From: an uncultured Nitrososphaerota archaeon
Lineage (GTDB): Archaea; Korarchaeota; Korarchaeia; Korarchaeales; Korarchaeaceae
NCBI GenBank assembly: GCA_964480775.1
Contig: CAYZRF010000030.1
Location: 1 to 17,689 of the forward strand
Direction: 5' to 3'
DNA: 17,689 nucleotides
Made by a program: the position numbers and the translations under genes
In this document: piece by piece, positions 592-15,110 of the stretch
Numbering within the stretch: position 1 is the stretch's first letter
Layout of the letters: the number at the start of each line of letters is the position of its first letter
Notes under the pieces: model-generated
Database searches by the model: none
Told to the model about the DNA's origin: nothing
The model's input: only the letters and a program-made list of their open reading frames with translations

Positions 592-828
592 CTATTCTTT
601 TATCAATCTGTAAAGGTAGTATCCAAGAGGCAGTAGGACAACTCCTATTATGATCCACAAAATAGATCCTCTTAGGCTTTCTCCCTTAATGTAATTCCAT
701 ATCGTAAACAAGATCCCGATGGATAGGCTGAGAACAATTGTTAGTAGTACTAAGTGAAATGCGAGATAAATTCCTAATGCAATGAACAAGGCATATATGT
801 CTTTTTTATCCAGTTTCATCTCAAACAC
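592..828 (-). CDS. small hydrophobic membrane protein (78 aa), function unknown
   Basis: ORF-track translation shows a long hydrophobic stretch (IYALFIALGIYLAFHLVLLTIVLSLSIGILFTIW) and a second one (SILWIIIGVVLLPLGYYLY). No motif recognised. Alternative start at Met4 (819). Confidence 0.45.
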   Translation of the reverse strand: MFEMKLDKKDIYALFIALGIYLAFHLVLLTIVLSLSIGILFTIWNYIKGESLRGSILWIIIGVVLLPLGYYLYRLIKE

Positions 829-843
829 TGGCTTAACCTAATG

Positions 844-854
844 CTTTTATTTTA
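844..854 (+). promoter_or_regulatory. TATA-like box (CTTTTATTTTA) upstream of the M14-like peptidase gene
   Basis: Centred about 33 nt upstream of ATG 882, in the 53-nt divergent spacer between the 828 (-) and 882 (+) starts. Confidence 0.35.
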
Positions 855-881
855 GACTTTGTTCTGGCATTGGATGTGTAA

Positions 882-2267: not shown

Positions 2268-2287
2268 TCTTTCGTGATCTCGCCATC

Positions 2288-3661
2288 TTATCTGCAGAAG
2301 TACTCTGCTGCTAAATATAGTGCGTGAGCAGCCGCAACCGCTCTTTCAGGGGATGAAAAGACTGGTATTCCCTCTTTTTCAAGCTCTCGGGATTGGTTTT
2401 TAGTGAAAGGCCCCCCAGCTGCTACCGCTAAGATAGGTTTACCATAATTCTTCATCTTTGGAACCACTCTAACGATCTCTTCCTCTAGAGGGGTATCTTG
2501 GAATACAAAAAACACCATTAGGATATCAACATTCAAGTCCTCTAGAAGGAGCTTCATGGCTGTCTCATAATCCCTCATGGTTGCGCTTCCAGTTAGATCA
2601 ACTGGATTTCCTACTATAGCATAGGAAGGTAATTGTCTTCTTAACTCGCTCCTTGTTCTTTCTGAGTATTCTGAAAGCTCCAAACCCCTTTCAACAATCT
2701 CATCCGTGGCCATTACACATGGACCCGCGCCGTTTGTTACCATTGCAATTCTAGGGCCAGCAGCCAATGGTAACATCGAAAGGGCCTTTGACACACCGTA
2801 GAGTTCTTCAAATGTTCTGGCCTCAATAGCACCACATTGTTTGAATGCTGCTGACACTACTCTGTATGATCCCGCGATGGATCCGGTGTGAGAAACTGCA
2901 GCCATGGATCCCCTTCTTGTCCTGCCTGATTTCAAGACAACAATTGGTTTGCGCATAGATACCTCTTTGCATGCATCCATGAACTTTCTTCCATTCGTGA
3001 TGCTTTCAGCGTATATTGCTATTACCTTGGTTTCGGGATCCTGCCCTAAATACCTTATCAGGTCAGCTTCATCCACATCGGCTTTGTTACCATAGCTTAC
3101 AAATTTGCTAATTCCAATTCCGTCTTCTGCTGCCCATTCCAAGAAGGCACAGCCAAAGGTTCCGCTCTGAGTGAGGAATGCGATGTTCCCCTTAGGAGGT
3201 CTCAGCATTCTCTCTCTAGATTGAAAGAAAGTATCAAGCCTGGTATTTCCATCGAAAATTCCTATACAGTTTGGGCCTATTATTCTCATTCCGTATTTTC
3301 TAGCTATTTCAATACATTTCCTTTCTATTTCGGCTCCTTCTGGTCCGACCTCTTTAAATCCTCCTGAAACGATAACTATTGCTTTTATTCTCTTTTTCCC
3401 ACATTCTTCTATAACTTCTGGCACAGCTTTTGGAGGGATAGAGAGGACTGCTAAATCTACCTCTCCAGGAATCTCCAATACGCTTTTGTAGCACTTAAGT
3501 CCTAGAATTTTTTCAGCCCTTGGGTTTACAGGGTAAATGTTTCCTCTGTAATTCCCTTCAACAAGACTTCTCAAGATTTCGTGTCCTATTTTACCAATTT
3601 TTGTTGATGCCCCAACTACTGCCACAGATCTAGCTTTAAAGAAGTAGTCAAGATCTTTCAT
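2288..3661 (-). CDS. acdA: ADP-forming acetyl/acyl-CoA synthetase (NDP-forming), alpha subunit
   Basis: The N-terminus is the CoA-binding Rossmann fold (DYFFKARSVAVVGASTKIGKIGHEI). Also present are IGPNCIGI, FLTQSGT and the phosphohistidine loop AAVSHTGSIAGS, characteristic of archaeal ACS/ACD alpha subunits. No beta subunit is adjacent. Confidence 0.88.
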   Translation of the reverse strand: MKDLDYFFKARSVAVVGASTKIGKIGHEILRSLVEGNYRGNIYPVNPRAEKILGLKCYKSVLEIPGEVDLAVLSIPPKAVPEVIEECGKKRIKAIVIVSGGFKEVGPEGAEIERKCIEIARKYGMRIIGPNCIGIFDGNTRLDTFFQSRERMLRPPKGNIAFLTQSGTFGCAFLEWAAEDGIGISKFVSYGNKADVDEADLIRYLGQDPETKVIAIYAESITNGRKFMDACKEVSMRKPIVVLKSGRTRRGSMAAVSHTGSIAGSYRVVSAAFKQCGAIEARTFEELYGVSKALSMLPLAAGPRIAMVTNGAGPCVMATDEIVERGLELSEYSERTRSELRRQLPSYAIVGNPVDLTGSATMRDYETAMKLLLEDLNVDILMVFFVFQDTPLEEEIVRVVPKMKNYGKPILAVAAGGPFTKNQSRELEKEGIPVFSSPERAVAAAHALYLAAEYFCR

Positions 3662-3816
3662 ACGATTTCCACACTATATGTTCATGTTCACTTATCAAGT
3701 TGAGCAATATGTTGTGTTGACTTCCACCCCTATTTCCAATAGATGCAAGGATATTTTGTCGGAAGTTGATCAGTCTTTTTATCTATTTCCTATACCTTCA
3801 ATTAGGTGATGACGCA

Positions 3817-4449
3817 TTGACCTTTGAGTTTAAAACCATTAAGGAAGCTGAGAAGGCCCTAGAAAGAATAGAGGAAGACCTTATTATGGGAAAAATTAAC
3901 GAAGAAGATTACAAAAATCAAAAAAGAAAGATCAAGGCCTATATCTCTCTTCTCGAGTTAGAAGACCTGCTTATTGAAGGGAAAATTACTGAAGAGGAGT
4001 ACAAGCAGAAGAAAGCGGAATATCAAGCCATAATTTCAGGAGAAGCTGTTGTTGAGGAGGCAATGGCTCCACTTGCCAAGGAAATAAAGGATGTCGTGTC
4101 TAAAATAAAGGAGATAAAGAGCAAGAGGGAAAAATTAAGAGACTTATTGATGAACAAGGAGATAAGCGAGAAAACTTTCAACAAGATAGACTCCGAATAT
4201 GAAGAGAAGGAGAAGGACCTTACTAGTGAATTATCCGAGAAAAAGGAGGAACTTGAAGAGAGAATTTCTGAAATAGAAGAGGAACTCGAGAAGGTTAGGC
4301 TTCAGTTAGAGGAACTTAGGGCAAGACTTGCTCTTGAAGAGATAAGTGGCTCTGAGTATGATGCAAAGAAATCAGACCTGGAGAAAAAGGAGAGAGAATT
4401 ATCCAATGAGATGATATCATTAAAAGATGCTCTCGAACTGTTGGAATAA
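3817..4449 (+). CDS. coiled-coil protein with four SHOCT-like repeats, function unknown
   Basis: Repeated module L..L...GKI(T/S/N)EE(E/D)YK..K: MGKINEEDYKNQKRKI, EGKITEEEYKQKKAEY, NKEISEKTFNKIDSEY, LEEISGSEYDAKKSDL. These are separated by Glu/Lys/Leu heptad-like stretches. The track start is TTG 3766. I prefer in-frame TTG 3817 because GGTGA (3805-3809) lies 7 nt upstream. ATG 3887 is also possible. Confidence 0.55.
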   Translation: MTFEFKTIKEAEKALERIEEDLIMGKINEEDYKNQKRKIKAYISLLELEDLLIEGKITEEEYKQKKAEYQAIISGEAVVEEAMAPLAKEIKDVVSKIKEIKSKREKLRDLLMNKEISEKTFNKIDSEYEEKEKDLTSELSEKKEELEERISEIEEELEKVRLQLEELRARLALEEISGSEYDAKKSDLEKKERELSNEMISLKDALELLE

Positions 4450-4476
4450 TTTCCTTGAAACAATCAATACTTACTC

Positions 4477-4489
4477 TTTTTCTGCTTTT
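4477..4489 (+). terminator. oligo-T tracts (TTTTTCTGCTTTT) downstream of the coiled-coil gene
   Basis: T5 and T4 runs lie 28-40 nt after stop 4449. Archaeal RNA polymerase terminates at oligo-T. Confidence 0.4.
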
Positions 4490-4691
4490 GTCAAAGCGAT
4501 ACATCCGGAGAATAAGCAAATTAACATGTCTGGGAAAAGATTACGAAAATCAAATAGTTTGGCTCGACAACTCCAAAGAGAGAGTAGTTTAGAGTATTCC
4601 ATTTTATTTCGGCCTTTTCCCCGAAAGTATTATTACGACAGGGTGTATATTTGATTCGAAATTCGTTCTCTGTAAGTACAAGGCGAATAAA

Positions 4692-5369
4692 ATGCAAAAC
4701 GATTTAGTGAGAACGAGGATATTCCCTGCTGCTATTTTACTATTAGTAGGGGTTATTATTGAGCTTGTTGAATATAAAATAAGGCATAGAAAAGGAAGAA
4801 GAATATCTATTGATCTAATCCCCGGATGGTTAGCAAAATTAGAAGGAAGAATTCTTTTAAGGTTGAATGACATCTTTCGAGAGCCATTTCTAGGGAAATA
4901 TCTCAAAATAGCCTCTATAATGGGAGAAGAGATGACGATCATAAGTTTGAGTGCGATTTTGTGCGTTTTTGGAGCAATAACTCAGGGGATTCTTCTCTTC
5001 TCGTCTTTTGTAGGGGGTACTTTCGTTGTTCTTCCTCTTAAAGCATTGTTTTCAAGACCACGACCCTATCAAACTCATAGCTCTGTTAGACGTTTAGCAG
5101 ATGAGATAGGCGGTGGATTTCCAAGCGGCCACTCAATGAATGCATTTATCATCGCCAGAATACTAACTAACTTTTACCCAGCGCTAGGACTTGTGTTATA
5201 TGCAATTGCGGTTTCAACTGCTGTCAGTAGAGTTTACCTTGGGCTCCATTATCCAACTGATGTGATGTTTGGTTCGCTTATTGGATGGACTGTGGCCGGT
5301 GGGGCAATATGCCACCAAGATTTGGTGATATCACTTATCTACTCGGCAATCAATCTCATCAAAATATGA
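4692..5369 (+). CDS. PAP2-superfamily membrane phosphatase (phosphatidic acid / undecaprenyl-PP phosphatase-like)
   Basis: All three PAP2 signature motifs are present in order: KALFSRPRP (Kx6RP), PSGHS, SRVYLGLHYPTD (SRx5Hx3D). There are multiple hydrophobic helices. Confidence 0.85.
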   Translation: MQNDLVRTRIFPAAILLLVGVIIELVEYKIRHRKGRRISIDLIPGWLAKLEGRILLRLNDIFREPFLGKYLKIASIMGEEMTIISLSAILCVFGAITQGILLFSSFVGGTFVVLPLKALFSRPRPYQTHSSVRRLADEIGGGFPSGHSMNAFIIARILTNFYPALGLVLYAIAVSTAVSRVYLGLHYPTDVMFGSLIGWTVAGGAICHQDLVISLIYSAINLIKI

Positions 5370-5439
5370 ATCATTTCTTCTGCCAATATGTCTGCACACT
5401 TGTGGTTTCCACTGTAATGGCTATTTCTTTGTAGTAGAG

Positions 5440-5446
5440 TTTATAA
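5440..5446 (+). promoter_or_regulatory. consensus-like archaeal TATA box TTTATAA, distal candidate promoter of the kor-hdr-mvh cluster or of a small upstream ORF
   Basis: TTTATAA is centred about 33 nt before ATG 5476, which fits a near-leaderless transcript start around 5469-5472. Confidence 0.35.
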
Positions 5447-5459
5447 GAAGAGCCTCGTG

Positions 5460-5476
5460 TCCTCCAAGAAGGAGGA
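5460..5476 (+). promoter_or_regulatory. 17-nt perfect hairpin/palindrome TCCTCC-AAGAA-GGAGGA
   Basis: A 6-bp stem with a 5-nt loop, read directly from the sequence. The 3' arm is an SD-like GGAGG abutting ATG 5476. Confidence 0.4.
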
Positions 5477-5643
5477 TGGAAGTGAGAAATCAGCTATACA
5501 ATGAATCTCAAAGGCTTCTGAACGTCCTCCGAGAAGAAATGAGAGTTTCTGGTCCCGTATTGCCCTTACAGACCTTATTTATTCAACAAACGTATTTTTC
5601 TGTCCAGGAGGCTCATCTTTCAAGCGTGAATATTTTTAACTAA
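5476..5643 (+). CDS. possible 55-codon small ORF in the leader region (below the ORF-track cutoff); very uncertain
   Basis: My translation is MEVRNQLYNESQRLLNVLREEMRVSGPVLPLQTLFIQQTYFSVQEAHLSSVNIFN*. No motif recognised. Its 3' end overlaps the proximal TATA-like box. Confidence 0.15.
   Translation: MEVRNQLYNESQRLLNVLREEMRVSGPVLPLQTLFIQQTYFSVQEAHLSSVNIFN
5631..5639 (+). promoter_or_regulatory. proximal TATA-like box TATTTTTAA upstream of korD
   Basis: Centred about 36 nt upstream of ATG 5671 and preceded by purine-rich GCGTGAA (BRE-like). GGAGGT (5654-5659) lies between it and the ATG. Confidence 0.4.
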
Positions 5644-5670
5644 TAGTTGGTGGGGAGGTTGAAGAGTCAG

Positions 5671-5949
5671 ATGCCCGCTGGTAGCAAGCTTCTACCGAGC
5701 CAAAAGCTCAAGATTTCAAGAGGAAAAGTCCATATTATCGAAGAAAGGTGCAAAGGGTGCGGTTTGTGCATTGATTTCTGCCCTAGAGAGGTCTTACATA
5801 GATCTGAAAGGGTTAACGAGAAGGGATACCATCTTGTTGAAGCCATAGAGGAGCCTGAAAAGGGAAAGGTCTGTGTGGCCTGCGGCTTCTGCCAAGTTAT
5901 TTGTCCTGAATATGCAATTTGGGTTGAGAAGAGGGAGGAAGACCTTTGA
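5671..5949 (+). CDS. korD: 2-oxoacid:ferredoxin oxidoreductase, delta subunit (2x[4Fe-4S] ferredoxin-like)
   Basis: Two CxxCxxCxxxCP motifs: CKGCGLCIDFCP and CVACGFCQVICP. About 92 aa. The track start is TTG 5647. ATG 5671, 11 nt after GGAGGT, is more plausible. Confidence 0.85.
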   Translation: MPAGSKLLPSQKLKISRGKVHIIEERCKGCGLCIDFCPREVLHRSERVNEKGYHLVEAIEEPEKGKVCVACGFCQVICPEYAIWVEKREEDL

Positions 5950-5966
5950 TTTTGGAGGCGATATAG

Positions 5967-7118
5967 TTGGGAAAGGCTGTTTTGACTGGAAGGCACTTCT
6001 GGTACGGGAACATTGCAATAGCTGAGGGAGCTATAGCTGCAGGCTGTAGGTTTTTCGCAGGCTACCCCATAACCCCAGCCAGCGAGATAGCAGAGCACAT
6101 TTCAAGGAGATTTCCGGATGTAGGAGGGATTTTCGTTCAGTTTGAGGATGAACTCGCTTCAATGGCAGCCATCTTGGGGGCATCCTGGGCAGGAGTAAAG
6201 TCCATGACAGCCACCTCTGGACCAGGCTTCAGCTTAATGATGGAGAATATAGGACTTGGTGTCATGATGGAAGTTCCAGTAGTCATTGTGGATGTCCAGC
6301 GAGGTGCACCTAGCACAGGTCTTCCTACTCTTACAGCTCAGGGAGATATCATGCAGGCGAAGTGGGGTAGCCATGGACAGTATGAAATTATCGCATTATC
6401 TCCTGAGTCCCCGCAGGAAGCTTTTGACCTTACAATACGCTGTTTCAACCTTGCTGAAAAGTATAGAGTCCCAACGATTTTGCTTGCAAGCGAATCTGTC
6501 TGTCATAGTGCAGGAAAAGTGGTAGTTCCAGCTGAGGAAGAAATAGAGATCATTTATAGGAAGAAACCAAAGGTTCCACCTGAGGAATACCTGCCCTATA
6601 AGCCAGACGAGGACCTTATTCCTCCCATGGCATGTGCAGGAGAAGGATATTCCATTAAGACCACCGGTCTTACCCACAATGAGAGAGGCTATCCGGATAC
6701 TACTCCAGAGGCCCAAGAAAAGTTAGTAAAACGTCTTAACGACAAAATCAGGATGCATAGAGAGGAGATCGTAGAAGTAGAAGAGGATTTCATGGACGAT
6801 GCTGAAATTGCAGTCGTGTCTTATGGTCAGGTCTCTCGTCCAGCTAAAAGAGCTGTTAGAATGGCTAGAGAAGAAGGAATAAAGGCTGGAAGCATAAGAT
6901 TGATAACTGTTTGGCCTTTTGCTGAACATATAATACGAAAATGGGCAAGACAAGTGGATTTCTTCATAGTTCCTGAGCTAAACTATGGTCAGATATACTT
7001 AGAGGTAAAAAGAGAAGCAAACGGAAACGCAGCGACTATCCTAGTTCCGAGAATGGGAGGTAGACTGATTACACCAGGGGAGATATATCATGAGATCAAA
7101 AAGGTTATTGGGAGGTGA
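5967..7118 (+). CDS. korA: 2-oxoacid:ferredoxin oxidoreductase, alpha subunit (KorA type)
   Basis: GNIAIAEGAIAAGCRFFAGYPITPASEI, FEDELASM and TATSGPGFSLMMEN are the conserved OFOR alpha N-domain blocks. At 383 aa it matches KGOR-type alpha. TTG start with GGAGG (5954-5958) 8 nt upstream. Confidence 0.9.
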   Translation: MGKAVLTGRHFWYGNIAIAEGAIAAGCRFFAGYPITPASEIAEHISRRFPDVGGIFVQFEDELASMAAILGASWAGVKSMTATSGPGFSLMMENIGLGVMMEVPVVIVDVQRGAPSTGLPTLTAQGDIMQAKWGSHGQYEIIALSPESPQEAFDLTIRCFNLAEKYRVPTILLASESVCHSAGKVVVPAEEEIEIIYRKKPKVPPEEYLPYKPDEDLIPPMACAGEGYSIKTTGLTHNERGYPDTTPEAQEKLVKRLNDKIRMHREEIVEVEEDFMDDAEIAVVSYGQVSRPAKRAVRMAREEGIKAGSIRLITVWPFAEHIIRKWARQVDFFIVPELNYGQIYLEVKREANGNAATILVPRMGGRLITPGEIYHEIKKVIGR

Positions 7119-7963
7119 AATTGTTGGAAGAAGCTTATGAGTTGTCGCATCCAATAGACAAGTGGCTTAAGACCGATAGAATGCCCCACATATGGTGTCC
7201 TGGATGTGGTGTGGGTCCCACAATTCATGCTTGGATAAGAGCCCTTGAGAGAGTGGGAATTGAGAAAGAAAAGGTCGTTTATGTTTCTGGTATAGGCTGC
7301 TGCGGGAGAGGCTCAGGCTATCTTGATATAGATGGTTTTCATACCACTCACGGAAGAGCCATTCCATTTGCAGTTGGGCTAAAGCTTGCAAAGCCAGAGC
7401 TTTGCGTCACGGTAATATCGGGTGACGGAGATCTTTTTGCTATAGGAGGAAATCACTTCATACACGCCTGCAGGAGAAACAATGACCTGCTGGTTATTTG
7501 CGTTAACAATTTCATCTACGGAATGACAGGAGGGCAGCTTGCTCCTACCACCCCTCACGGTGGTTATTCAACCACAAGTCCGTATGGTAACATTGAGCAT
7601 CCGTTTAACACACCACATCTTGCTGATGCGGCTGGGGCTGTCTTTGTGGCCAGGTGGACAAGCGTTCATGTTAGGGAGCTAGAGCTGTCTATAGCTGAGG
7701 CTCTTAGAATGAAGGGATTCAAGTATATAGAGGTTCTATCACCTTGCCCTGTGAATTTTGGTAGGAGGAACAACTTCCCCCAGCCTGATGATATGGCTAA
7801 GTGGTTTGCTCAATCTTCAATCATCAGACATGGGGCTGACACAAGCAAGGTAGCTATCAGCATGGGTAAACCTTTGATTTTAGGCAATTTTGTAAAGAGA
7901 GAGGAGAAACCCACCTATTATGAGCTCCTTAGGAAATTAGAGGAGATGAGGCGGGGGAGATGA
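7115..7963 (+). CDS. korB: 2-oxoacid:ferredoxin oxidoreductase, beta subunit (TPP and [4Fe-4S] binding)
   Basis: HIWCPGCG, GIGCCGR and SPCP supply the cluster cysteines. GDGDLFAIGGNHFIHACRRNNDLLVICVNN is the GDG..NN thiamine-PP motif. GTG 7115 overlaps the korA stop (GTGA). In-frame TTG 7121/7124 are better spaced from GGAGG 7111-7115. Confidence 0.9.
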   Translation: MKLLEEAYELSHPIDKWLKTDRMPHIWCPGCGVGPTIHAWIRALERVGIEKEKVVYVSGIGCCGRGSGYLDIDGFHTTHGRAIPFAVGLKLAKPELCVTVISGDGDLFAIGGNHFIHACRRNNDLLVICVNNFIYGMTGGQLAPTTPHGGYSTTSPYGNIEHPFNTPHLADAAGAVFVARWTSVHVRELELSIAEALRMKGFKYIEVLSPCPVNFGRRNNFPQPDDMAKWFAQSSIIRHGADTSKVAISMGKPLILGNFVKREEKPTYYELLRKLEEMRRGR

Positions 7964-8529
7964 GTCGCAGAGGCAGAAGAGAGGTTATGTTCGCTGGCTT
8001 TGGTGGTCAAGGAATAATAACAGCTGGTTATATAGTTGGTAGGGCTGCCGCCGTTTATGATAACAAAGAAGCTACTTTGACACAATCTTATGGGCCAGAA
8101 GCCAGGGGATCGACGTGTTATAGTGGTGTGGTGATAGACGAGGAGGAGATAGATTATCCATACCTTCTAAATCCAGAGGTCATAGTGTTGATGAGCAAGG
8201 ACGCTTATGAGAAGTTTCTGCCAAGGCTTAGAGAGGGAGGAATTTTGATAGTAGATAGCTCGATTGTCAAACCGGATGAAAGAGCCAGTAATTACATCGT
8301 TTACGAGGTTCCGGCTACAGAAGAGGCCGAGGAAATGGGAGCGAGAATTGTAGCAAACGTCATCATGCTCGGCTTTCTTGGAAAGGTATGGGATGCAGTA
8401 AGCGTCGACGCTCTAAGAGAGTCTGTTAAGTCTACTGTTCCAAGAAAGTACCTCGATCTTAATCTCAGAGCTTTTGAGAGGGGAGTTGAGCTTGGAGAGA
8501 AAGCCCTGAAGAAAAGAGAAGAGGGGTGA
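7960..8529 (+). CDS. korG: 2-oxoacid:ferredoxin oxidoreductase, gamma subunit
   Basis: FAGFGGQGIITAG and QSYGPEARGS are the hallmark OFOR gamma motifs. ATGA overlap with the korB stop. Confidence 0.9.
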   Translation: MSRRGRREVMFAGFGGQGIITAGYIVGRAAAVYDNKEATLTQSYGPEARGSTCYSGVVIDEEEIDYPYLLNPEVIVLMSKDAYEKFLPRLREGGILIVDSSIVKPDERASNYIVYEVPATEEAEEMGARIVANVIMLGFLGKVWDAVSVDALRESVKSTVPRKYLDLNLRAFERGVELGEKALKKREEG

Positions 8530-8536
8530 TCAAGAA

Positions 8537-10543
8537 ATGGAGAGCGTAACATCGGCGTCCTATTCAGATTCTAGCGGAGAGAGATATAAGAAGGAAAGGA
8601 TAGGCGTGTTTGTGTGCCACTGTGGTAGAAATATCGCAGCAACCGTTGACGTTAAGAAAGTTGTTGAGGAGATTTCAAAGCATCCAGCAGTGGTACACGC
8701 AGAGGACTACGATTATATGTGCAGCAAGCCAGGTCAAGAGCTAATAGAAAAGGCCATTAAAGAAAAGGGATTAACTGGGGTTGTGGTTGCTGCTTGCTCT
8801 CCATCGATTCACGAAACAACCTTCAGAGAGACGGTAGAACACGCTGGTCTAAACCCTTACAGATGTGAGATGGCAAATATAAGGGAACAATGTAGCTGGG
8901 TTCATGAAGATATGGATATGGCAACAGAAAAGGCTATAAGACTAATCAAAAGCGTCATCGAAAAGGTTGTCAGGAACGAGGAGCTTGAACCTGTCAAGGT
9001 TGGCCTGCACAAGAAGGCTTTAGTTATTGGAGGAGGAATTGCTGGAATTAGGGCAGCTCTGGATATTGCAAACGCTGGTTTTCAAGTCATTTTAGTCGAG
9101 AAAAAACCGACCATTGGAGGACACATGTCTCAGTTGGCAGAGACTTTCCCAACTCTTGACTGCGCCCAGTGCATCCTAACCCCGCTAATGAGCGAGGTTG
9201 CCAATCATCCAAACATTAAGCTGTTAACCCTTTCAGAAGTTATTGATGTTGAGGGATATGTGGGGAACTTCCACGTTCGCATAAAGAAGAATCCAAGGTA
9301 TGTGGATCCAGATAAGTGTAACCTTTGTGATAATTGCACAGAGGTCTGTCCTGTAGTTGTTCCCTCTGAGTTTGACGAGGGATTAAGCCTTAGAAAGGCC
9401 ATTTATATACCGTTTCCACAAGCCGTGCCATCCTCCTACGTTATCGATCCAGATGCTTGTCTTGGTATGAATCCCATAATTTGTGGTAAATGCGCAGAAC
9501 CTGATGTTTGTGGTCCTGGCGCAATTAATTTCTATGATCAGCCCGAAATAATAGAGGAAGATGTCGGGGTCATAATTGTAGCAACCGGTTACGAGCTTTA
9601 TAACCCCGAAAAAATCAGCGAGTACGGAGCTGATAAGTATCCGGATATAATAACCTCCCTTCAGTTTGAACGCCTGCTTTCTCCAAATGGTCCCACGGGA
9701 GGAATACCGAAGAGGCCTAGTGACGAGAAGATCCCGAAGAGAATAGCCTTCATTCACTGCGCTGGTTCCAGAGACGAGAAGCATCGACCTTACTGCAGTC
9801 ACATTTGTTGTACTTACTGTTCGAAACATGGCTTACTGTTCAAAGAGCTTGTGCCTGATGCCGAAGTTTATTCTTTTTACATAGACATCAGGGCCGTAGG
9901 AAAGAACTATGAGGATTTCGTTAAAAGAGCCCAAGAGGAAGCTGGTATTCAATTTATCAGGGGAAAGGTCTCCAAAATTTACGAGGAAGACGGAAAAGTG
10001 AAGATATTTGCCGTTGATACCTTGTTGAACAGAAGGATAGAGGTTGAGGTCGACATGGCTGTCTTGGCCTTGCCAATAGTGCCAGCTCAGGGAATTGCTG
10101 ATTTGGCAAGCAAGATGCGAATTCAGATTGATAACTACGGCTTCCTTCAGGAACGTCACCCGAAGCTACATCCGGTAGAATCTGCAACACCTGGTATCTT
10201 TTTGGCTGGTGCCGCACAATCTCCAAAGGACATACAAGACACAGTGGCTCAAGCTAGCGCTGCTGCAAGTAAAGCATTAGAGATCCTTACACAGGATGAA
10301 ATAAGCCATACACCAACGGTCGCCAGTGTGGACAGAGACCTTTGCAGTGGATGTCGTCTTTGCCTTTCCGTATGCCCATACGGAGCCATAAAGATAGTAG
10401 ACGGTAAGGCTGAAGTCAATGAGATAATTTGTGAGGGATGTGGAGCATGCGTTTCTACGTGTGCTTCTGGCGCAATAAGCCTTAGGAACTTTACAGATGA
10501 ACAGATTGATGCCATGATCGAGGCAGTTGTGGGAGGGATCTAA
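8537..10543 (+). CDS. hdrA: heterodisulfide reductase subunit A (FAD, multi-[4Fe-4S]; electron-bifurcating flavoprotein family)
   Basis: The N-terminus is an MvhD-like Cys domain (GVFVCHCGRNIA ... ACSPS ... REQCSWVH). The FAD dinucleotide fold is VIGGGIAGIRAALDIANAGFQVILVEK. The inserted ferredoxin motif is CNLCDNCTEVCP. The HdrA signature is FIHCAGSRDEKHRPYCSHICC. The C-terminal 2x[4Fe-4S] motifs are CSGCRLCLSVCP and CEGCGACVSTC. A GGGGTGATC ribosome-binding site lies inside the korG 3' end. Confidence 0.92.
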   Translation: MESVTSASYSDSSGERYKKERIGVFVCHCGRNIAATVDVKKVVEEISKHPAVVHAEDYDYMCSKPGQELIEKAIKEKGLTGVVVAACSPSIHETTFRETVEHAGLNPYRCEMANIREQCSWVHEDMDMATEKAIRLIKSVIEKVVRNEELEPVKVGLHKKALVIGGGIAGIRAALDIANAGFQVILVEKKPTIGGHMSQLAETFPTLDCAQCILTPLMSEVANHPNIKLLTLSEVIDVEGYVGNFHVRIKKNPRYVDPDKCNLCDNCTEVCPVVVPSEFDEGLSLRKAIYIPFPQAVPSSYVIDPDACLGMNPIICGKCAEPDVCGPGAINFYDQPEIIEEDVGVIIVATGYELYNPEKISEYGADKYPDIITSLQFERLLSPNGPTGGIPKRPSDEKIPKRIAFIHCAGSRDEKHRPYCSHICCTYCSKHGLLFKELVPDAEVYSFYIDIRAVGKNYEDFVKRAQEEAGIQFIRGKVSKIYEEDGKVKIFAVDTLLNRRIEVEVDMAVLALPIVPAQGIADLASKMRIQIDNYGFLQERHPKLHPVESATPGIFLAGAAQSPKDIQDTVAQASAAASKALEILTQDEISHTPTVASVDRDLCSGCRLCLSVCPYGAIKIVDGKAEVNEIICEGCGACVSTCASGAISLRNFTDEQIDAMIEAVVGGI

Positions 10544-10544
10544 G

Positions 10545-10958
10545 ATGAGCGAAGAGTTTGAGCCCAAGATCATTGCGTTTCTCTGTAGATGGTGTGGTTA
10601 TGCTGGAGCAGACATGGCTGGGACTTCCCGATTAAAGTATCCTCCCACGATTACGCCAATCCGAGTTCCATGCACCGGAAGAATTGATATGGAACACGTC
10701 TTAAGGGCCTTAAAGATATCTGATGGTGTCTTAATTGCAGGGTGCCATACTCCAGGAGACTGTCACTACGTCCGAGGGAACTTCCAATGCTTTAAGCGTG
10801 TTACCCTCCTAAAGAAGTTCCTAAAACAAATGGGGATAAACCCAGCACGTGTCAGATTAGAATGGATTTCAGCAACAGAGGGAAGGAAATTCGCCAGGGT
10901 GATAAAGGAGTTTACTGAAGAATTGAAGGAATTAGGTCCGTTGAGGGGAGTGGAATGA
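10545..10958 (+). CDS. mvhD: methyl-viologen-reducing hydrogenase delta subunit (MvhD/FlpD family, [2Fe-2S])
   Basis: IIAFLCRWCGYAGAD, RVPCTGR and AGCHTPGDCHY are the conserved MvhD cysteine blocks. ATG 10545 is 1 nt after the hdrA stop, with GGGAGGG 8 nt upstream. The track start GTG 10527 is unlikely. Confidence 0.9.
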   Translation: MSEEFEPKIIAFLCRWCGYAGADMAGTSRLKYPPTITPIRVPCTGRIDMEHVLRALKISDGVLIAGCHTPGDCHYVRGNFQCFKRVTLLKKFLKQMGINPARVRLEWISATEGRKFARVIKEFTEELKELGPLRGVE

Positions 10959-11941
10959 GAAAGATAAAGCTGGCTGTAGATTACGGCTCGATATGTGGCG
11001 GCTGTGATGTCGCATTTATTGATGCTGGTGAAAAGTTAATAGAACTGGCTAATGCTGCCGAAATAGTCTTTTGGCCAGCTGTTGTGGATGGCAAAGAAGA
11101 GGACCTAAGGAAAACTAGAGAAATAGATGTGGGCATATTCTTTGGTGCAATTCGTACTGAAAGACATAAAGAGGCTCTTGAACAGCTAAGGGATAAATCC
11201 CGTATATTGGTAGCATTTGGAACTTGTGCATGTTATGGTGGAATTCCAGGTCTTGCAAATTCAGTTGAAAGCCGAGTTCTGCTTAAAAAAGGATATGTGA
11301 CTACAAAGAGCACGGACAATCCTGATGGCAAGCTGCCAGGATTTGAAGAATTTAAAGAGGCTGCTTTAAAACTTCCAAGACTTAGATCTTTAGTTTCACC
11401 CATTTGCGACTTTGTGGACGTGGATATTTGGGTGCCAGGTTGCCCCCCACCAGTTGAATCTGTGAACAAGCTGATAGATGTAGTTAAAGACTTACAAAAA
11501 GGCAGTGTTCCTCCAAAAGGACTTTTTATCGCAGAAGGAACGAGTTTATGTGATTTCTGTGAGCGTGAAAAGCCAGAGGTGCTACATATAAAGAGATTTA
11601 GGAGGGTTCACGAGGGCGAGATCAGAAGGGATGAATGTTTCTTAAAACAAGGAATTATTTGCCTGGGGCCTGTAACGAGGGGGGGCTGCGGGGCAAGGTG
11701 CATTGATTCGAATATGCCATGTAGAGGGTGTTTCGGACCTGTTCCAAACATTGAAGATCAAGGGACTAGGTTCCTAAGTGCAGTTGCTTCAGCACTCATG
11801 GCTGAAGAGGAGCGAGAGGTGGGGGAGGAGGAGTTAAGAAAACTGTTAGATGAATTACCGGACCCGCTAGGGCTCTTTTACATGTATTCCCTTGCTGCAG
11901 CCATAATAAACAGGAGGTACTTGGATTTGGAGGGAGATTAA
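10955..11941 (+). CDS. mvhG: [NiFe] hydrogenase small subunit, F420-non-reducing (Mvh, group 3c-like)
   Basis: Proximal-cluster cysteines are present (SICGGCD, FGTCACYGG, VPGCPP), as are distal Cys clusters (CDFC, CLGPVTRGGCGARC, PCRGC). No Tat signal, so it is cytoplasmic. ATGA overlap with mvhD. Confidence 0.9.
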   Translation: MRKIKLAVDYGSICGGCDVAFIDAGEKLIELANAAEIVFWPAVVDGKEEDLRKTREIDVGIFFGAIRTERHKEALEQLRDKSRILVAFGTCACYGGIPGLANSVESRVLLKKGYVTTKSTDNPDGKLPGFEEFKEAALKLPRLRSLVSPICDFVDVDIWVPGCPPPVESVNKLIDVVKDLQKGSVPPKGLFIAEGTSLCDFCEREKPEVLHIKRFRRVHEGEIRRDECFLKQGIICLGPVTRGGCGARCIDSNMPCRGCFGPVPNIEDQGTRFLSAVASALMAEEEREVGEEELRKLLDELPDPLGLFYMYSLAAAIINRRYLDLEGD

Positions 11942-11943
11942 GG

Positions 11944-13413
11944 ATGGGTGAGAAAGAGAGAAAGATCATAACGATTGAGCCGGTTACTAGGCTTGAGGGA
12001 GAGGCTAAGATCAATATAATATTGGATGAAGAGGGAAATGTTAAGGAAGCTTACTTCCAAGTGATGGACTACAGGGCCTTTGAAGTCCTCTCGGTTGGAA
12101 GACAGGCAGAAGAAATGCCGAGAATAGCAAATCGTATTTGCGGGGTTTGCTCCTGGGCTCACCACATGGCAGCTGTAAAGGCCTTAGACCAACTTTTTGG
12201 AAGAGATCCTCCTCCAACTGCAAAGAAGTTGAGGGAGCTTTCATACTGTGCCCACACCATCCACAGTCATATAATTCATTTCTTCCTCTTCGCGTCTCCA
12301 GATCTCTTCCTCTCGCCAGATGCAGAACCATCAGTAAGAAACTTCATTGGTCTTCTTCAGAAGCATCCTGAGCTCACTAAAAGGGCTCTCAAGTGGCATA
12401 CAGAATCAGAGAGGGTACAGGAGATCATTGGAGGGAAGGCGGTTCACCCTCCGTTTGCAATTCCAGGAGGAGTGAGTAAACCCTTAACTGAAGAGGAAAG
12501 GGTAAAGGTCATAGAAAAGGCAAAGGGATTGCTGGACTTCTCCCTAGACTCCCTTTCCTTCTTCAAGAAGAACATTGTTGAAAACGAAAAGTATAGGGAC
12601 CTGTTTTTTGGCGATCTTTATCGTCTGGAGACCTATTACATGGGATTAGTGGATTCAAATAACCAGATCAACTTCTATGATGGAAAAATAAAGGTCATAA
12701 ACCCTGAAGGTCATGAAACCTTCAAATTTGATTGCTCTGACTATCTTGATTATATAGCAGAGAGAGTTGAGCCTTGGACTTATACCAAATTTCCATATTT
12801 GAAGAAGATCGGGTGGAAAGGACTTGTAGATGGAAAAGGAAGTGGAGTCTATAGAGTAAATTCACTCCCACGCTTAAATGTATCCGAAGGTATGCCAACA
12901 CCTAAGGCACAAGAGGCTTACGAGGATTACATGGATGCCTTGGGCAGGCCAGCTCACGCTACTCTAGCCTTTCATTGGGCGAGATTGATAGAGATGATCT
13001 ATTGTTCTGAAAGAATGCTTGAGCTTTTGGAAGATCCAGAAATCACCAGCAAAGAGGTCATGAATTACACGGGTGATTACAAGGGAGAAGGGATAGGAGT
13101 AGTAGAAGCTCCCCGCGGTACGCTAATCCACCACTACGAAGCTGATGAGAATGGAATAATCAAGAATAGCAACTTAATAGTGCCAACTACAATGAACAAT
13201 GCTGCTATATGCATGGAGATTAGGAACTCGGCTAGGAAACTTATTAGAGGAGGAAATGTGCCAGAAGGAGTCTTAAATCGAGTAGAGATGGCTTTCAGAG
13301 CATACGACCCATGTTTATCTTGTTCTACCCATTCTTTGCCGGGAGAAATGCCTCTTGAGGTCGTAATAATGAATGAAGAAGGAAAGGTGCTGAGGAGGCT
13401 GAGGAGAAGTTGA
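11944..13413 (+). CDS. mvhA: [NiFe] hydrogenase large subunit, F420-non-reducing (Mvh, group 3c-like)
   Basis: The N-terminal NiFe ligand motif is RICGVCSWAH and the C-terminal motif is DPCLSCSTH. The latter is followed by a 25-aa tail (SLPGEMPLEVVIMNEEGKVLRRLRRS), which fits endopeptidase processing. Confidence 0.92.
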   Translation: MGEKERKIITIEPVTRLEGEAKINIILDEEGNVKEAYFQVMDYRAFEVLSVGRQAEEMPRIANRICGVCSWAHHMAAVKALDQLFGRDPPPTAKKLRELSYCAHTIHSHIIHFFLFASPDLFLSPDAEPSVRNFIGLLQKHPELTKRALKWHTESERVQEIIGGKAVHPPFAIPGGVSKPLTEEERVKVIEKAKGLLDFSLDSLSFFKKNIVENEKYRDLFFGDLYRLETYYMGLVDSNNQINFYDGKIKVINPEGHETFKFDCSDYLDYIAERVEPWTYTKFPYLKKIGWKGLVDGKGSGVYRVNSLPRLNVSEGMPTPKAQEAYEDYMDALGRPAHATLAFHWARLIEMIYCSERMLELLEDPEITSKEVMNYTGDYKGEGIGVVEAPRGTLIHHYEADENGIIKNSNLIVPTTMNNAAICMEIRNSARKLIRGGNVPEGVLNRVEMAFRAYDPCLSCSTHSLPGEMPLEVVIMNEEGKVLRRLRRS

Positions 13414-13880
13414 ATTCTACCCTCATATTGGGATGGGGTAATCCTTTATTTGGCGATGACGGCTTTGGAGTTAAAGTAGTTGAAAAACTGACGAAAATGA
13501 AGCTTCCAAAGGACATAAGGGTCGAATCCTGTTCTTCTTCCCCTCTCTCAGTTGCGAGAAAGATGCTCAATTATAGGAAAGTTATAATAATTGACACACT
13601 TCAGATCCCGCACGCAAAAGAGGGAAGTGTATTAAAACTTAGCCTGAAGGAGCTTTGTGACTCGCCAAACCTAATTAATCCACACAGCCTGAGTCTTCCG
13701 GCTGTCTTGGAAATTTATAGAACTTTGTACCCAGATCAGGTTCCTGAGGAGGTACTCGTCGTAGGTGTGTGTGTTGGACCTCCCAAAGTCAGCGAGAGGC
13801 TATCAGAAAAGGTTGAGGCAAAAATCGACGAGGTTGTTGAGCTAGTTGTAAGAGAGGTAGGAGGTAAGGGAAATGAATGA
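13410..13880 (+). CDS. hydrogenase maturation endopeptidase (HycI/HybD/FrhD family)
   Basis: ILGWGNPLFGDDGFGVKVVEKL is the family N-terminal signature. IIIDT and NPHSLSL supply the downstream Asp and His. TTG start in a TTGA overlap with the mvhA stop. Confidence 0.8.
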   Translation: MNSTLILGWGNPLFGDDGFGVKVVEKLTKMKLPKDIRVESCSSSPLSVARKMLNYRKVIIIDTLQIPHAKEGSVLKLSLKELCDSPNLINPHSLSLPAVLEIYRTLYPDQVPEEVLVVGVCVGPPKVSERLSEKVEAKIDEVVELVVREVGGKGNE

Positions 13881-14244
13881 GCTAGCAAAGAAAGTAATGG
13901 AGATTAGCGGACAAAATGTCTATGCTTGCTATCAGTGTGGTTGTTGTAGTGCTGGATGTATGTTTACTGAAAAAATGGATATCTTGCCGAACCAGGCAAT
14001 TGCACTCGTTCAAAGGGGAGACAAGTGCGTCCTTGAGAAAGAGACGCCTTGGATATGCGCATCTTGCTTTGTCTGCACTGTCAGGTGCCCGAGAGGATTG
14101 GATGTAGCGGCAATTATGGAAGCCTTAAGAGAGATCAAAATCAGAGAAAGGAACTTCACAAGAGTTGACTTAAGAAAGATCGAGAACATGGAGAAATTAC
14201 CACAAATAGCAATAACAGCTGTAGCTCAGAAGTTTACGTGGTGA
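13873..14244 (+). CDS. hdrC: heterodisulfide reductase subunit C (2x[4Fe-4S])
   Basis: CYQCGCCSAGC and CASCFVCTVRCPRG. About 123 aa. GGAGGT lies 7 nt upstream. 8-nt overlap with the protease gene. Confidence 0.88.
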   Translation: MNELAKKVMEISGQNVYACYQCGCCSAGCMFTEKMDILPNQAIALVQRGDKCVLEKETPWICASCFVCTVRCPRGLDVAAIMEALREIKIRERNFTRVDLRKIENMEKLPQIAITAVAQKFTW

Positions 14245-14249
14245 TAGAG

Positions 14250-15110
14250 ATGAAACTTCTGTTTTATCCCGGTTGTTCTCTTAAGAATAACTATCCTGAG
14301 TTCGAAAAGACCTCCATAGAGGTCTGTAAAAAACTTGGAATTGATCTGATAGAGATTCCTAAATGGACATGTTGTGGAGTTAACTTCAGCCTTGCTACTG
14401 ATAACGTAATGCGACACTTAGGAGCAGTGCGGTCCTTCATTAATGCTCAAAAGAAAATAGAGGAGATGGACTCCAATAAGGTGGTTACAGCCTGCTCAAT
14501 GTGCTATAACGTATTGAAAAGGGTTAATCTAACGCTAAAAGAGGATTCAGACAAGTTGGGGACCATAAACTCTTTCATTGACGATGAGCCAGATTACGTA
14601 CCAGAACTGGAGATAACCCATCTTATCACCCTATTCAAAGAGTTTGGGTTTGAAAAGATCAAGAGTAAAGTCATCAAACCTTTGAATGGGTTAAAAGTCG
14701 CATCTTACTATGGATGCGCCATTCTTAGGCCCAATAAACCAAAGGGAATTCCAATTGATAATCCAGATAGTCCAACGATATTTGAAGATCTTATTAGAAG
14801 TATAGGAGCTGAGCCTGTAGACTTTCCCTTCAAAACAGAATGTTGTGGGAATTATCATATTGTGTTTAGACCCGACATCGTGGAAATGAGAGCCGAGAAA
14901 ATTATCAGCTCTGCTAAGTCTAGGGGGGCAGATGTTATTGTCTCTACTTGTCCTCTCTGCTTGTACAACCTTCAAAGGGGAAATGAAGTCTTCGAAGAGG
15001 AAAATAAAATTCCAATTGTCTTCTTCACTCAATTAATGGCCTTGGCTCTGGGAACCGATCCGCATTTAAGTGATGAAATCAGAGAGAAAATCTTGAAGAA
15101 TGTAGAATAG
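14250..15110 (+). CDS. hdrB: heterodisulfide reductase subunit B (two CCG domains, catalytic disulfide-reducing subunit)
   Basis: Two complete C..CC..CxxC CCG modules: YPGC...WTCCG...TACSMC and YYGC...TECCG...STCPLC. I prefer ATG 14250 (MKLLFYPGC), with GGTGAT 4 nt upstream, over the track start GTG 14238. Confidence 0.9.
   Translation: MKLLFYPGCSLKNNYPEFEKTSIEVCKKLGIDLIEIPKWTCCGVNFSLATDNVMRHLGAVRSFINAQKKIEEMDSNKVVTACSMCYNVLKRVNLTLKEDSDKLGTINSFIDDEPDYVPELEITHLITLFKEFGFEKIKSKVIKPLNGLKVASYYGCAILRPNKPKGIPIDNPDSPTIFEDLIRSIGAEPVDFPFKTECCGNYHIVFRPDIVEMRAEKIISSAKSRGADVIVSTCPLCLYNLQRGNEVFEEENKIPIVFFTQLMALALGTDPHLSDEIREKILKNVE

Follow-up and report, generated by a model that had tools for sequence, protein, structure and literature searches.

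A Korarchaeal operon joining a 2-oxoacid:ferredoxin oxidoreductase to a Mvh-Hdr module: a probable redox unit with relatives in Bathyarchaeia and bacteria

Introduction

Contig CAYZRF010000030.1, whose 17,689 nucleotides are referred to here as the window, carries the genes of a 2-oxoacid:ferredoxin oxidoreductase (OFOR, korDABG) in one row with those of a hydrogenase and heterodisulfide reductase module (mvhDGA with hdrA and hdrCB). Do these genes encode one redox unit and, if so, in which direction do electrons run through it? Judging by gene content and conserved synteny, the kor-hdr-mvh operon is probably a real redox unit, and we give a probability of roughly 45% to the reading that OFOR and Mvh-Hdr are functionally coupled with confurcation, the formation of H2 from two electron sources, as the main physiological direction.

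The flavin adenine dinucleotide (FAD) of HdrA bifurcates electron pairs that arrive from a mid-potential donor through MvhD; of each pair, one electron climbs in potential via HdrC and ends on the non-cubane clusters in HdrB, and the second enters Fe-S clusters of low potential, from which ferredoxin is reduced. The OFOR reaction, at about -500 mV, is the interconversion of a 2-oxoacid with acyl-CoA plus CO2. HdrABC and MvhD are also kept in non-methanogenic archaea (Bathyarchaeia, Korarchaeia, Asgard) lacking the CoM-S-S-CoB heterodisulfide, a conservation that was termed 'puzzling', also for the Korarchaeal proteins, with a substrate that is 'unclear' (PMC10667645, PMC7886697); a conserved pairing with an OFOR of the 2-ketoglutarate:ferredoxin oxidoreductase (KGOR) type gives them a concrete and testable partner. 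The supply of low-potential ferredoxin to the 2-oxoglutarate and pyruvate synthases of bacteria with a reductive tricarboxylic acid (rTCA) cycle is likewise 'still unresolved' (PMC10052474), and an Hdr module wired to an OFOR is a candidate answer, which previously rested on one gammaproteobacterial example.

Gene content and geometry of the operon

Eleven consecutive open reading frames (ORFs) span positions 5671-15110 on the forward strand in the order korD-korA-korB-korG-hdrA-mvhD-mvhG-mvhA-protease-hdrC-hdrB:

5671..5949, forward strand: korD, OFOR delta subunit, 2x[4Fe-4S] ferredoxin-like (Pfam Fer4_7/Fer4 dicluster)
5967..7118, forward strand: korA, OFOR alpha subunit (POR_N and PFOR_II)
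7115..7963, forward strand: korB, OFOR beta subunit, predicted to bind thiamine pyrophosphate, TPP (TPP_enzyme_C); its start overlaps the korA stop (GTGA)
7960..8529, forward strand: korG, OFOR gamma subunit (Pfam POR)
8537..10543, forward strand: hdrA, flavin/Fe-S subunit and predicted bifurcation site (NCBIfam HdrA2 model)
10545..10958, forward strand: mvhD, [2Fe-2S] adaptor (Pfam FlpD, profile positions 1-123 of 123, 167.5 bits)
10955..11941, forward strand: mvhG, [NiFe]-hydrogenase small subunit (Oxidored_q6; VhuG model, 200 bits)
11944..13413, forward strand: mvhA, group-3-type [NiFe]-hydrogenase large subunit (NiFeSe_Hases; VhuA model, 405 bits)
13410..13880, forward strand: hydrogenase maturation endopeptidase (Pfam HycI; TIGR00072, 105.5 bits against a cut-off of 47)
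13873..14244, forward strand: hdrC, short 2x[4Fe-4S] subunit of 123 residues (Fer4_8; HdrC/QmoC models under cut-offs)
14250..15110, forward strand: hdrB, two-CCG-domain subunit and predicted site of the high-potential half reaction (two CCG stretches)

According to the junction script, neighbouring genes are spaced, in gene order, by 17, -4, -4, 7, 1, -4, 2, -4, -8 and 5 nt, with stop/start overlaps of the types GTGA, ATGA and TTGA (4 nt are common to mvhA and the protease gene, 8 nt to the latter and hdrC), and together with the ORF listing it agrees exactly with the eleven genes and ten junctions of a first-pass annotation made from the sequence by itself. That no junction holds an oligo-T tract or TATA-like box, as had also been stated there, was found again: all seven runs of at least five T inside 5671-15110 are intragenic, and so are the TATA-like hexamers, in a scan that leaves internal promoters possible, for example at the hexamer at 13714 in the protease gene. 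Shine-Dalgarno motifs resembling GGAGG/GGGAG lie ahead of most starts, and the next gene on the 3' side is convergent. By geometry these genes form one operon, and from their spacing we infer a single transcript.

The oxidoreductase subunits

KorDABG is a full delta-alpha-beta-gamma set (2x[4Fe-4S] delta, POR_N/PFOR_II, TPP_enzyme_C and POR). KorA exceeded the cut-off of NCBIfam model PRK08659 '2-oxoacid:acceptor oxidoreductase subunit alpha' (555.8 bits, cut-off 411), and its best structural relative in the PDB was the alpha subunit of the P. furiosus 2-keto acid:ferredoxin oxidoreductase (1yd7, 419 bits), followed by the 2-oxoglutarate synthase alpha chain 8ys5 (256 bits) and, more weakly, by 6n2n (221 bits), which carries a generic depositor name and which we take to be the Magnetococcus 2-oxoglutarate:ferredoxin oxidoreductase (OGOR); the alpha chain of a pyruvate:ferredoxin oxidoreductase, the sole pyruvate-type chain matched, reached 50 bits. 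Best models of the other subunits were PRK09628 (2-oxoglutarate ferredoxin oxidoreductase beta, Oor-type) for KorB with 267 bits, under the cut-off, and OGOR_delta for KorD, a weak match of 52.9 bits that is also under the cut-off; overall, Oor/OGOR models of NCBIfam rank best or second-best for the Kor subunits, yet below their cut-offs. The literature searched gave no usable residue-level determinants of 2-oxoglutarate specificity. Because of this model ranking, and of the sucCD, Tfr-like, fumarase and malic enzyme context of the relatives described below, KorDABG is most likely a KGOR-type OFOR with 2-oxoglutarate/succinyl-CoA + CO2 as its substrate pair.

For korD, an alternative TTG start lies at 5647. 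KorD shares 65-71% identity with its Bathyarchaeal and 43-50% with its bacterial counterparts, whose genes all adjoin korA on its 5' side. The order delta-alpha-beta-gamma is shared with the KGOR of Thermococcales and with Helicobacter OorDABC; those known enzymes, however, pass their electrons to free ferredoxin and are not encoded with Hdr or a hydrogenase.

The Mvh-Hdr module

Compared with MvhAGD-HdrABC of methanogens (5ODC, 8RVU), all six subunits are present with full or near-full alignments to solved chains. Residues 14-665 of HdrA align to 6-653 of 8rvu HdrA (705 bits; 692 bits with 5odc HdrA), covering the FAD and ferredoxin domains, and the score on the HdrA2 model was 836.7 bits, which misses the cut-off of 1100. 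MvhG matched two MvhG chains (9sw2_E, 203 bits; 5odc_E, 200 bits) and MvhA matched 5odc_F (MvhA, 414 bits), its NiFe ligand motifs RICGVC..H and DPCLSCSTH being intact in the alignment and followed by a 26-residue C-terminal tail. HdrB aligns over its full length to methanogen HdrB (130 bits) with all ten cysteines of both CCG motifs, and scored 163.9 bits on CoB_CoM_SS_B (cut-off 345) and 145.8 bits on SdhE (MFR anchor), both under cut-offs. HdrC revealed the dicluster core only: its residues 15-97 align to 30-112 of the 184-residue methanogen protein, it is without the ~70 C-terminal residues of the latter, and it reached 49-53 bits against NCBIfam cut-offs of 160-350. With NiFe ligands, FlpD domain and both CCG motifs in place, the module had rightly been called complete as far as subunits and metal-ligand motifs (Pfam, NCBIfam and structure matches) are concerned, and it is apparently functional.

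Differences from the methanogen system concern gene order, mvhDGA and the protease gene standing between hdrA and hdrCB with the OFOR immediately upstream, as well as the Hdr subunits themselves, since HdrA, HdrB and HdrC all stay under the equivalog cut-offs and HdrC counts 123 residues instead of ~184. As the host is a Korarchaeon and no methanogen, CoM-S-S-CoB is an unlikely substrate. Because of these sub-threshold scores and this host, the word 'heterodisulfide' of the first-pass annotation is to be read as a placeholder for a high-potential couple. No such partner of HdrB is encoded locally in the Korarchaeal operon: neither an Frd/Tfr-like flavoprotein (fumarate reductase and thiol:fumarate reductase, respectively) in the window, which contrasts with the bacterial relatives, nor tfrAB in the Korarchaeal loci L001, L003 and L108 was found. 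Flx-like genes are also absent from the operon, the donor position being held by MvhDGA.

Taken by itself, this gene content could belong to an OFOR and a Mvh-Hdr complex that are independent soluble enzymes on the general ferredoxin pool and share an operon for balanced expression, Mvh-Hdr supplying, for example, reduced ferredoxin to the Wood-Ljungdahl pathway. OFORs normally use free ferredoxin, and within 5671-15110 no polyferredoxin ORF or other obvious bridging subunit was detected. General ferredoxin reduction is also how the Mvh-Hdr of this lineage has been interpreted in print (PMC10667645). We consider this co-regulation improbable in view of the distribution of the gene cluster.

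Korarchaeal relatives

HdrA was used as query over one genome per GTDB species, and the loci found (L numbers) were annotated by tblastn with the window proteins. Near-identical loci came from metagenome-assembled genomes (MAGs) labelled 'Thermoproteota archaeon', namely B15_G15 (96%), B8_G17, a binchicken MAG and Kor4. A look-up of the exact HdrA sequence gave no match, and the exact KorG is recorded from the window contig itself. As B15_G15 and B8_G17 were assigned to Korarchaeia, family and genus QMVU01 (PMC10667645 supplement), the window belongs to a Korarchaeon of that genus; its setting is marine hydrothermal. All eleven genes recur in identical order in L001, L003 and the 108-kb ENA contig L108, and part of the set in L002 and L011.

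Since the contig is metagenome-derived, a chimera or some other fortuitous adjacency was conceivable a priori, but nothing positive speaks for it. The identical arrangement occurs in independently assembled contigs of different studies and samples (QMVZ01, QMVU01, CAZUBM01, JAVCBX01 and ENA ERZ27248455), it is found in closed Bathyarchaeal chromosomes, and stop and start codons overlap at several junctions. An artefact is effectively refuted by the Korarchaeal contigs, L108 among them, and the Bathyarchaeal chromosomes, and we attach next to no weight to it. A further Korarchaeal locus, L105, whose KorG is 65% identical, displayed korABG without adjoining Hdr genes.

Bathyarchaeal relatives

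A protein search with KorG placed its nearest relatives outside Korarchaeia, with 67-77% identity, in genomes annotated as Bathyarchaeia. Two of these genomes are closed (CP070828.1, locus L103, and CP070786.1, locus L104; ~6722-13256) and carry korD, korA, korB, korG, hdrA, mvhD, hdrC and hdrB, i.e., the gene order of the window minus mvhG, mvhA and the protease gene. From korD to hdrB, identities to the window are 65, 80, 75, 71, 77, 74, 73 and 64% (73-74% for hdrC); hdrB of L103, with only 99 residues, appears truncated, and the full eight-gene set and the value of 64% rest on L104. Even the spacing equals that of the window at three junctions, with 1 nt between hdrA and mvhD, an 8-nt overlap of hdrC with its preceding gene, and 5 nt between hdrC and hdrB. 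Both operons are preceded by a second hdrC/hdrB-like pair; downstream of it, L104 has a further HdrB-like protein along with an acyl-CoA dehydrogenase and EtfAB, and L103 has an ATP-grasp gene resembling the beta subunit of ADP-forming acyl-CoA synthetase (ACD). In L100, an HdrA::MvhD fusion lies directly 5' of korDABG.

Other close relatives of KorG have different redox partners. In L102 and L107, what comes after korDABG is a shorter HdrA-like flavoprotein and/or a polyferredoxin, and in L106 it is a polyferredoxin only. The genes in question (L106 9611-10507, L107 9625-11813, L102 8901-9688) encode a polyferredoxin of ~295 residues and/or a flavoprotein of 432 residues that is 58% identical to part of HdrA, and judged by their position after KorG they would be a second way to hard-wire an OFOR to an electron-transfer module. 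On the basis of this distribution, the kor-hdr link is frequent and ancient but not universal or obligatory.

Relatives in bacteria

Among bacteria, the HdrA scan yielded Bipolaricaulota and MAGs labelled 'Thermotogae', with HdrA 58-60% identical and korG directly 5' of hdrA. The same adjacency occurs in Korarchaeal L001-L003, L011 and L108, in Bathyarchaeal L103 and L104, and in bacterial L004, L006, L008, L009, L010, L021 and L022, and is the most conserved junction. Locus L008 reads sucC, sucD, korG, hdrA, mvhD, MvhG-like, MvhA-like, hdrC, hdrB, a 2x[4Fe-4S] protein, a TfrA/SdhA-like flavoprotein, korD, korA, korB and a class-I fumarase, which is the archaeal order cyclically permuted, the korG-hdrA junction being kept and korDAB standing at the other end of the cluster. 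Another 80 loci came from scanning metagenomes with an alignment of HdrA. Among them, L022 carries korG, hdrA, mvhD, mvhG, mvhA, protease, hdrC, hdrB, an Fe-S protein, a Tfr-like flavoprotein, korD, korA and korB; L021 carries korG, hdrA, mvhD, mvhG and mvhA; and L025 carries hdrC, hdrB, hdrA, an Fe-S protein, a Tfr-like flavoprotein, korD, korA and korB. In L022, a '23S rRNA-intervening sequence protein' gene (PF05635; 15900-16277) lies between hdrC and hdrB of the otherwise intact cluster.

Over 91 HdrA-bearing loci, the presence of kor genes follows the identity of HdrA to that of the window:

HdrA identity of at least 80% (Korarchaeal): kor genes in 4 of 4 loci
HdrA identity of 54-62%: kor genes in 9 of 16 loci
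HdrA identity below 54%: kor genes in 0 of 71 loci

In the middle group, 13 of the 16 loci hold kor genes and/or the Tfr-like pair, and the remaining three are short contigs. The gene neighbourhood comparison proposed in the first-pass annotation has been run in this way, and kor-hdr synteny turned out to be kept across Korarchaeia, Bathyarchaeia, Bipolaricaulota and other bacterial contigs, which strongly backs its claim that the OFOR is functionally tied to Mvh-Hdr, as far as synteny can speak for function.

For the same reason we prefer a functional coupling to co-regulation on a common ferredoxin pool. In favour of co-regulation, some close KorG relatives have no Hdr neighbours (L105) or other redox partners (L106, L107). 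Against it, korG and hdrA have stayed adjacent in at least one phylum of bacteria and in two classes of archaea although the rest of the cluster was rearranged, none of the loci with an HdrA of less than 54% identity holds kor genes, which are thus confined to the closest HdrA clade, and Kor and Hdr stay joined when the hydrogenase module is lost or inactivated.

Two labels used for the bacterial neighbours had to be dropped. For 'frdA', NCBIfam showed a TfrA/SdhA/NadB-like flavoprotein under every cut-off, and 'frdB' is a generic 2x[4Fe-4S] protein and no classical SdhB.

The hydrogenase as the variable part

The hydrogenase is retained in the QMVU01 Korarchaeia and in L004 (first copy), L021, L022, L024 and L027; among the latter, the NiFe ligands were inspected for L004, L022 and L027, the assignments of L021 and L024 resting on 47-50% identity to MvhA of the window. 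In the Bipolaricaulota MvhA-like protein, all four NiFe-ligand cysteines are replaced (RIDAHCA / RPAFVPT) and no Pfam hydrogenase match was obtained. Such a degenerate MvhG/MvhA-like pair is found in L008 (12365-14546), in L004 (14672-16826) and also in L005-L007, and L004 and L005 harbour a bona fide hdrA-mvhDGA set in tandem with the degenerate one. By its sequence, the Bipolaricaulota protein appears to be an inactive hydrogenase that has been retained as a scaffold.

Gene content across these loci identifies Kor, HdrA, MvhD and HdrCB as the predicted conserved core, and MvhG, MvhA and the protease as a variable module. Because the hydrogenase has been lost or inactivated in places where Kor and Hdr persist, the conserved partnership would be that of Kor with Hdr and not that of Hdr with hydrogenase. 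Accompaniment of Kor by the entire Mvh-Hdr module, as first described for the window, consequently stands for the Kor-HdrA-MvhD-HdrCB core, but the hydrogenase is variable, absent in Bathyarchaeia and dead in Bipolaricaulota. The series, in which the hydrogenase works in Korarchaeia, is dead in Bipolaricaulota and is missing from Bathyarchaeia, and in which the Tfr-like flavoprotein is variably present, amounts to a natural experiment on the modularity of bifurcating enzymes.

Proposed function and direction of electron flow

We propose one functional redox unit with three ports. The first would be KorDABG, acting on 2-oxoglutarate/succinyl-CoA + CO2 at about -500 mV; the second, the MvhAG [NiFe] hydrogenase (H2/H+), linked to the core by MvhD; the third, HdrBC, whose candidate high-potential couple is a disulfide or else a reductase encoded at another locus, to which electrons would be passed on. 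The FAD of HdrA would split or merge electron pairs among the three, i.e., bifurcate or confurcate. Because the operon provides all three ports in cis, the OFOR may be the dedicated low-potential partner, reached by docking of KorD on the ferredoxin domains of HdrA or by a local ferredoxin. The core of Kor, HdrA, MvhD and HdrCB, which Bathyarchaeia and several bacteria have in common with this lineage, would be an old and mobile module, and in the Korarchaeal version a working hydrogenase would be encoded in cis.

The chemistry can run both ways, and in a peptide-importing host confurcation is more likely. Low-potential electrons from 2-oxoacid oxidation would then be combined with those of a weaker reductant entering at HdrB to form H2, and ATP would be gained from the acyl-CoA by the neighbouring ACD. 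Pairing a weaker reductant 1:1 with electrons derived from 2-oxoacids is the classical logic of confurcating hydrogenases. Upstream of the operon, the window carries the following genes:

882-2267: M14 carboxypeptidase, conserved upstream neighbour
2288..3661, reverse strand: ACD alpha subunit (Succ_CoA_lig and CoA_binding; TIGR02717, 538 bits)
3766-4449: glutamate/lysine-rich coiled-coil protein, conserved upstream neighbour
4692-5369: PAP2 phosphatase, conserved upstream neighbour

The ACD alpha gene is kept upstream of the operon, in divergent orientation, in L001, L003, L011 and L108, and the subunit is a possible pathway partner (acyl-CoA <-> acid + ATP); sucCD takes the equivalent position in the bacterial relatives, and the ACD-beta-like gene of L103 lies downstream. 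In L108, an Opp-type oligopeptide ABC transporter is found further upstream (L108 1-7207). By its predicted products, the conserved upstream neighbourhood (window 1-5369) is peptide-oriented, and confurcation is favoured by transporter, M14 carboxypeptidase and ACD alpha as well as by the Bathyarchaeal ACD-beta-like gene and acyl-CoA dehydrogenase with EtfAB. Korarchaeia were described as peptide fermenters and the host lineage as non-methanogenic (PMC10667645).

Several points weigh against this preferred reading of coupling with confurcation. Judged by synteny, a physical complex and a set of co-regulated enzymes drawing on one ferredoxin pool look alike. Neither a bridging polyferredoxin nor an Frd/Tfr-like flavoprotein is encoded in the operon, and L105, L106, L102 and L107 combine Kor with no Hdr genes or with other partners, as described above. 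To our knowledge, every characterised Mvh-Hdr complex oxidises H2 (Kaster et al. 2011). For H2 evolution, the lineage of the window (Kg_8) already holds ferredoxin-dependent group 4g and [FeFe] hydrogenases, and it alone among Korarchaeia joins a hydrogenase classed as group 3c and a putative uptake hydrogenase of group 1h, both [NiFe], with the Wood-Ljungdahl pathway (PMC10667645). The analogue known from Endoriftia is tied to the rTCA cycle (PMC6315080, PMC11636981).

Part of this evidence would suit the reverse direction, in which MvhAG oxidises H2, HdrA bifurcates, and KorDABG, supplied with the electron of low potential, makes 2-oxoglutarate from succinyl-CoA + CO2; the high-potential electron would pass to a disulfide, or to fumarate via a Tfr/Frd-type enzyme encoded elsewhere. 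The outcome would be a reductive branch leading from fumarate to 2-oxoglutarate and powered by H2, with each carboxylation paid for by exactly one fumarate reduction. Besides the H2-oxidising habit of characterised Mvh-Hdr complexes, the methanogen enzymes Tfr, Mvh-Hdr and Kor yield an equal 1:1 stoichiometry via free pools. The bacterial relatives lie amid sucCD, a TfrA-like flavoprotein with its Fe-S protein, korDAB, fumarase and malic enzyme, and HdrB scores on the SdhE anchor model nearly as high as on HdrB models. Analogous korABCD and tfrAB genes amid flxABCD-hdrABC are co-expressed with rTCA genes (PMC6315080, PMC11636981, PMC13147460), and QMVU01 has group 3c and 1h hydrogenases and the Wood-Ljungdahl pathway. 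Autotrophy of Kg_8 was held 'questionable', as the authors saw no alpha-ketoglutarate route (PMC10667645); if the reductive direction were true, the operon would give the 2-oxoglutarate route whose lack led to that doubt about Wood-Ljungdahl autotrophy in Korarchaeia. Nevertheless, we regard reductive operation as the less likely direction: no Frd/Tfr-like gene lies in or beside the Korarchaeal operon, a stoichiometric high-potential acceptor would be needed, the neighbourhood (Opp transporter, carboxypeptidase, ACD) is peptide-catabolic, and a peptide importer has little need of de novo glutamate. The context of the relatives, which points to 2-oxoglutarate and the fumarate-to-2-oxoglutarate arm of the TCA cycle, a link absent from the first-pass annotation, suits the oxidative direction equally, and their pairing is stoichiometrically neat both ways, as 2-oxoglutarate/succinyl-CoA and fumarate/succinate, the most electronegative and the most electropositive step of one pathway segment, average roughly to the potential of H2. 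Fumarate is the presumed substrate of the Tfr-like flavoprotein because fumarase and malic enzyme genes adjoin.

A bolder version of the coupling is that KorDABG, HdrABC and MvhADG form one supercomplex, in which the TPP enzyme exchanges electrons with the HdrA flavin through KorD and without free ferredoxin. This seems rather unlikely to us. If true, it would be the first OFOR-containing machine of flavin-based bifurcation, it would explain the wide retention of HdrABC and MvhD in non-methanogenic Bathyarchaeia and Korarchaeia, and, run reductively, it would be an H2-driven carboxylase forming a C-C bond from CO2.

Comparison with known systems

In Methanospirillum hungatei, the Fdh-MvhD-HdrABC-Fmd supercomplex couples Hdr directly to an enzyme that converts CO2 at low potential, MvhD serving as the adaptor to the donor module. 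Its PDB family (7BKB) was among the structure matches of HdrA. There, the bridge is the polyferredoxin FmdF, which has no counterpart in the window, though polyferredoxins are present in Bathyarchaeal L106 and L107, and the CO2-converting enzyme is formylmethanofuran dehydrogenase instead of an OFOR.

A second comparable system is the rTCA cluster of tubeworm symbionts and Thioflavicoccus, in which korABCD and tfrAB are interspersed with flxABCD-hdrABC (PMC6315080, PMC11636981). For it, Rubin-Blum 2019 suggested that one complex hands electrons straight to OGOR and to thiol:fumarate reductase (PMC6315080), Mitchell 2024 found the tubeworm-symbiont cluster co-expressed (PMC11636981), and a 2026 survey reported the kor/tfr-flx-hdr arrangement to be specific to Endoriftia among the rTCA bacteria examined (PMC13147460). 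Both systems have a four-subunit OGOR contiguous or interleaved with HdrABC, and a Tfr-like flavoprotein also occurs in the bacterial relatives of the window. The donor, however, is the NADH dehydrogenase FlxABCD in that cluster and the Mvh hydrogenase in the window, and the gammaproteobacterial hosts of the former have a full rTCA cycle that includes ATP citrate lyase, whereas the window has no tfr/frd genes and its lineage no ATP citrate lyase (PMC10667645).

The third comparable case, the HdrAL/POR cluster of Syntrophobacter fumaroxidans (Sfum_0012-0018; PMC5947623), shares with the window an Hdr-type flavoprotein beside an OFOR in a non-methanogen, but consists of an HdrL-type NAD(P)-binding fusion and a pyruvate oxidoreductase with no hydrogenase, and was undetected in the proteome.

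The first-pass annotation knew of no characterised OFOR-Hdr-Mvh assembly. With respect to the concept this has to be corrected, since PMC6315080, PMC11636981 and PMC5947623 provide precedents; the Mvh version is undescribed in the literature searched. There, a kor-hdr(-mvh) cluster was not mentioned in work on Korarchaeia, Bathyarchaeia, Bipolaricaulota/Acetothermia or Culexarchaeia or in reviews of bifurcating enzymes, and the main text of PMC10667645 draws no oxoacid oxidoreductase link and does not mention oxoglutarate, oxoacid or fumarate. The idea, in short, has precedent; its hydrogenase-linked form, its occurrence in archaea and how widely the linkage extends seem to be new relative to the literature searched.

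Related clusters without an oxidoreductase

Many loci with less than 54% HdrA identity, human-gut metagenome contigs included, still hold the Tfr-like pair and fumarase. Many contigs (L046, L061, L072, L074, L077, L082, L090, L092, L093 and others), some of them from human-gut assemblies, show hdrB-hdrC-hdrA-mvhD, then a 2x[4Fe-4S] protein, a TfrA/SdhA-like flavoprotein and fumarase; these clusters have neither hydrogenase nor kor genes. Such hdrBCA-mvhD-Tfr-like-fumarase clusters may represent a widespread Hdr-coupled fumarate reductase or succinate dehydrogenase, of which we found no description. Locus L027 (7057-18436, 39% GC) contains malic enzyme, fumA, fumB, hdrA, mvhD, mvhG, mvhA, hdrC, hdrB, an Fe-S protein and a Tfr-like flavoprotein, and could serve H2-dependent, bifurcating fumarate reduction with no OFOR involved.

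Upstream region and base composition

A 300-nt intergenic region lies 5' of korD, with one conserved feature:

5434..5643, forward strand: putative upstream control region, two AT-rich boxes kept across four Korarchaeal contigs

Box 1 lies at ~5434-5449 ('GACTTTATAAGAAGAG') and box 2 at ~5624-5643 ('GTGAATATTTTTAACTAAT'), ~28 nt ahead of the korD ATG. Both are kept in an alignment of the window with L001, L003 and L011, in which the intervening sequence diverges, and they may be archaeal promoter elements. The boxes flank an ORF of 55 residues (5476-5643), which is preceded by an AGGAGG of its own and adjoins an inverted repeat, CCTCC..GGAGG; its N-terminus is semi-conserved in L001 and poorly conserved in L003 and L011. 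The ORF may specify a small regulator or a leader peptide, or else be a leader that is not translated.

The GC content rises from 0.37-0.39 at 3001-5000 in the upstream flank to 0.44-0.47 over the operon (5001-15000). As an indicator of lateral acquisition this step is uninformative, since the adenine deaminase gene downstream, with a GC content of 0.45-0.48, is near the operon's value. GC skew is positive over the entire operon.

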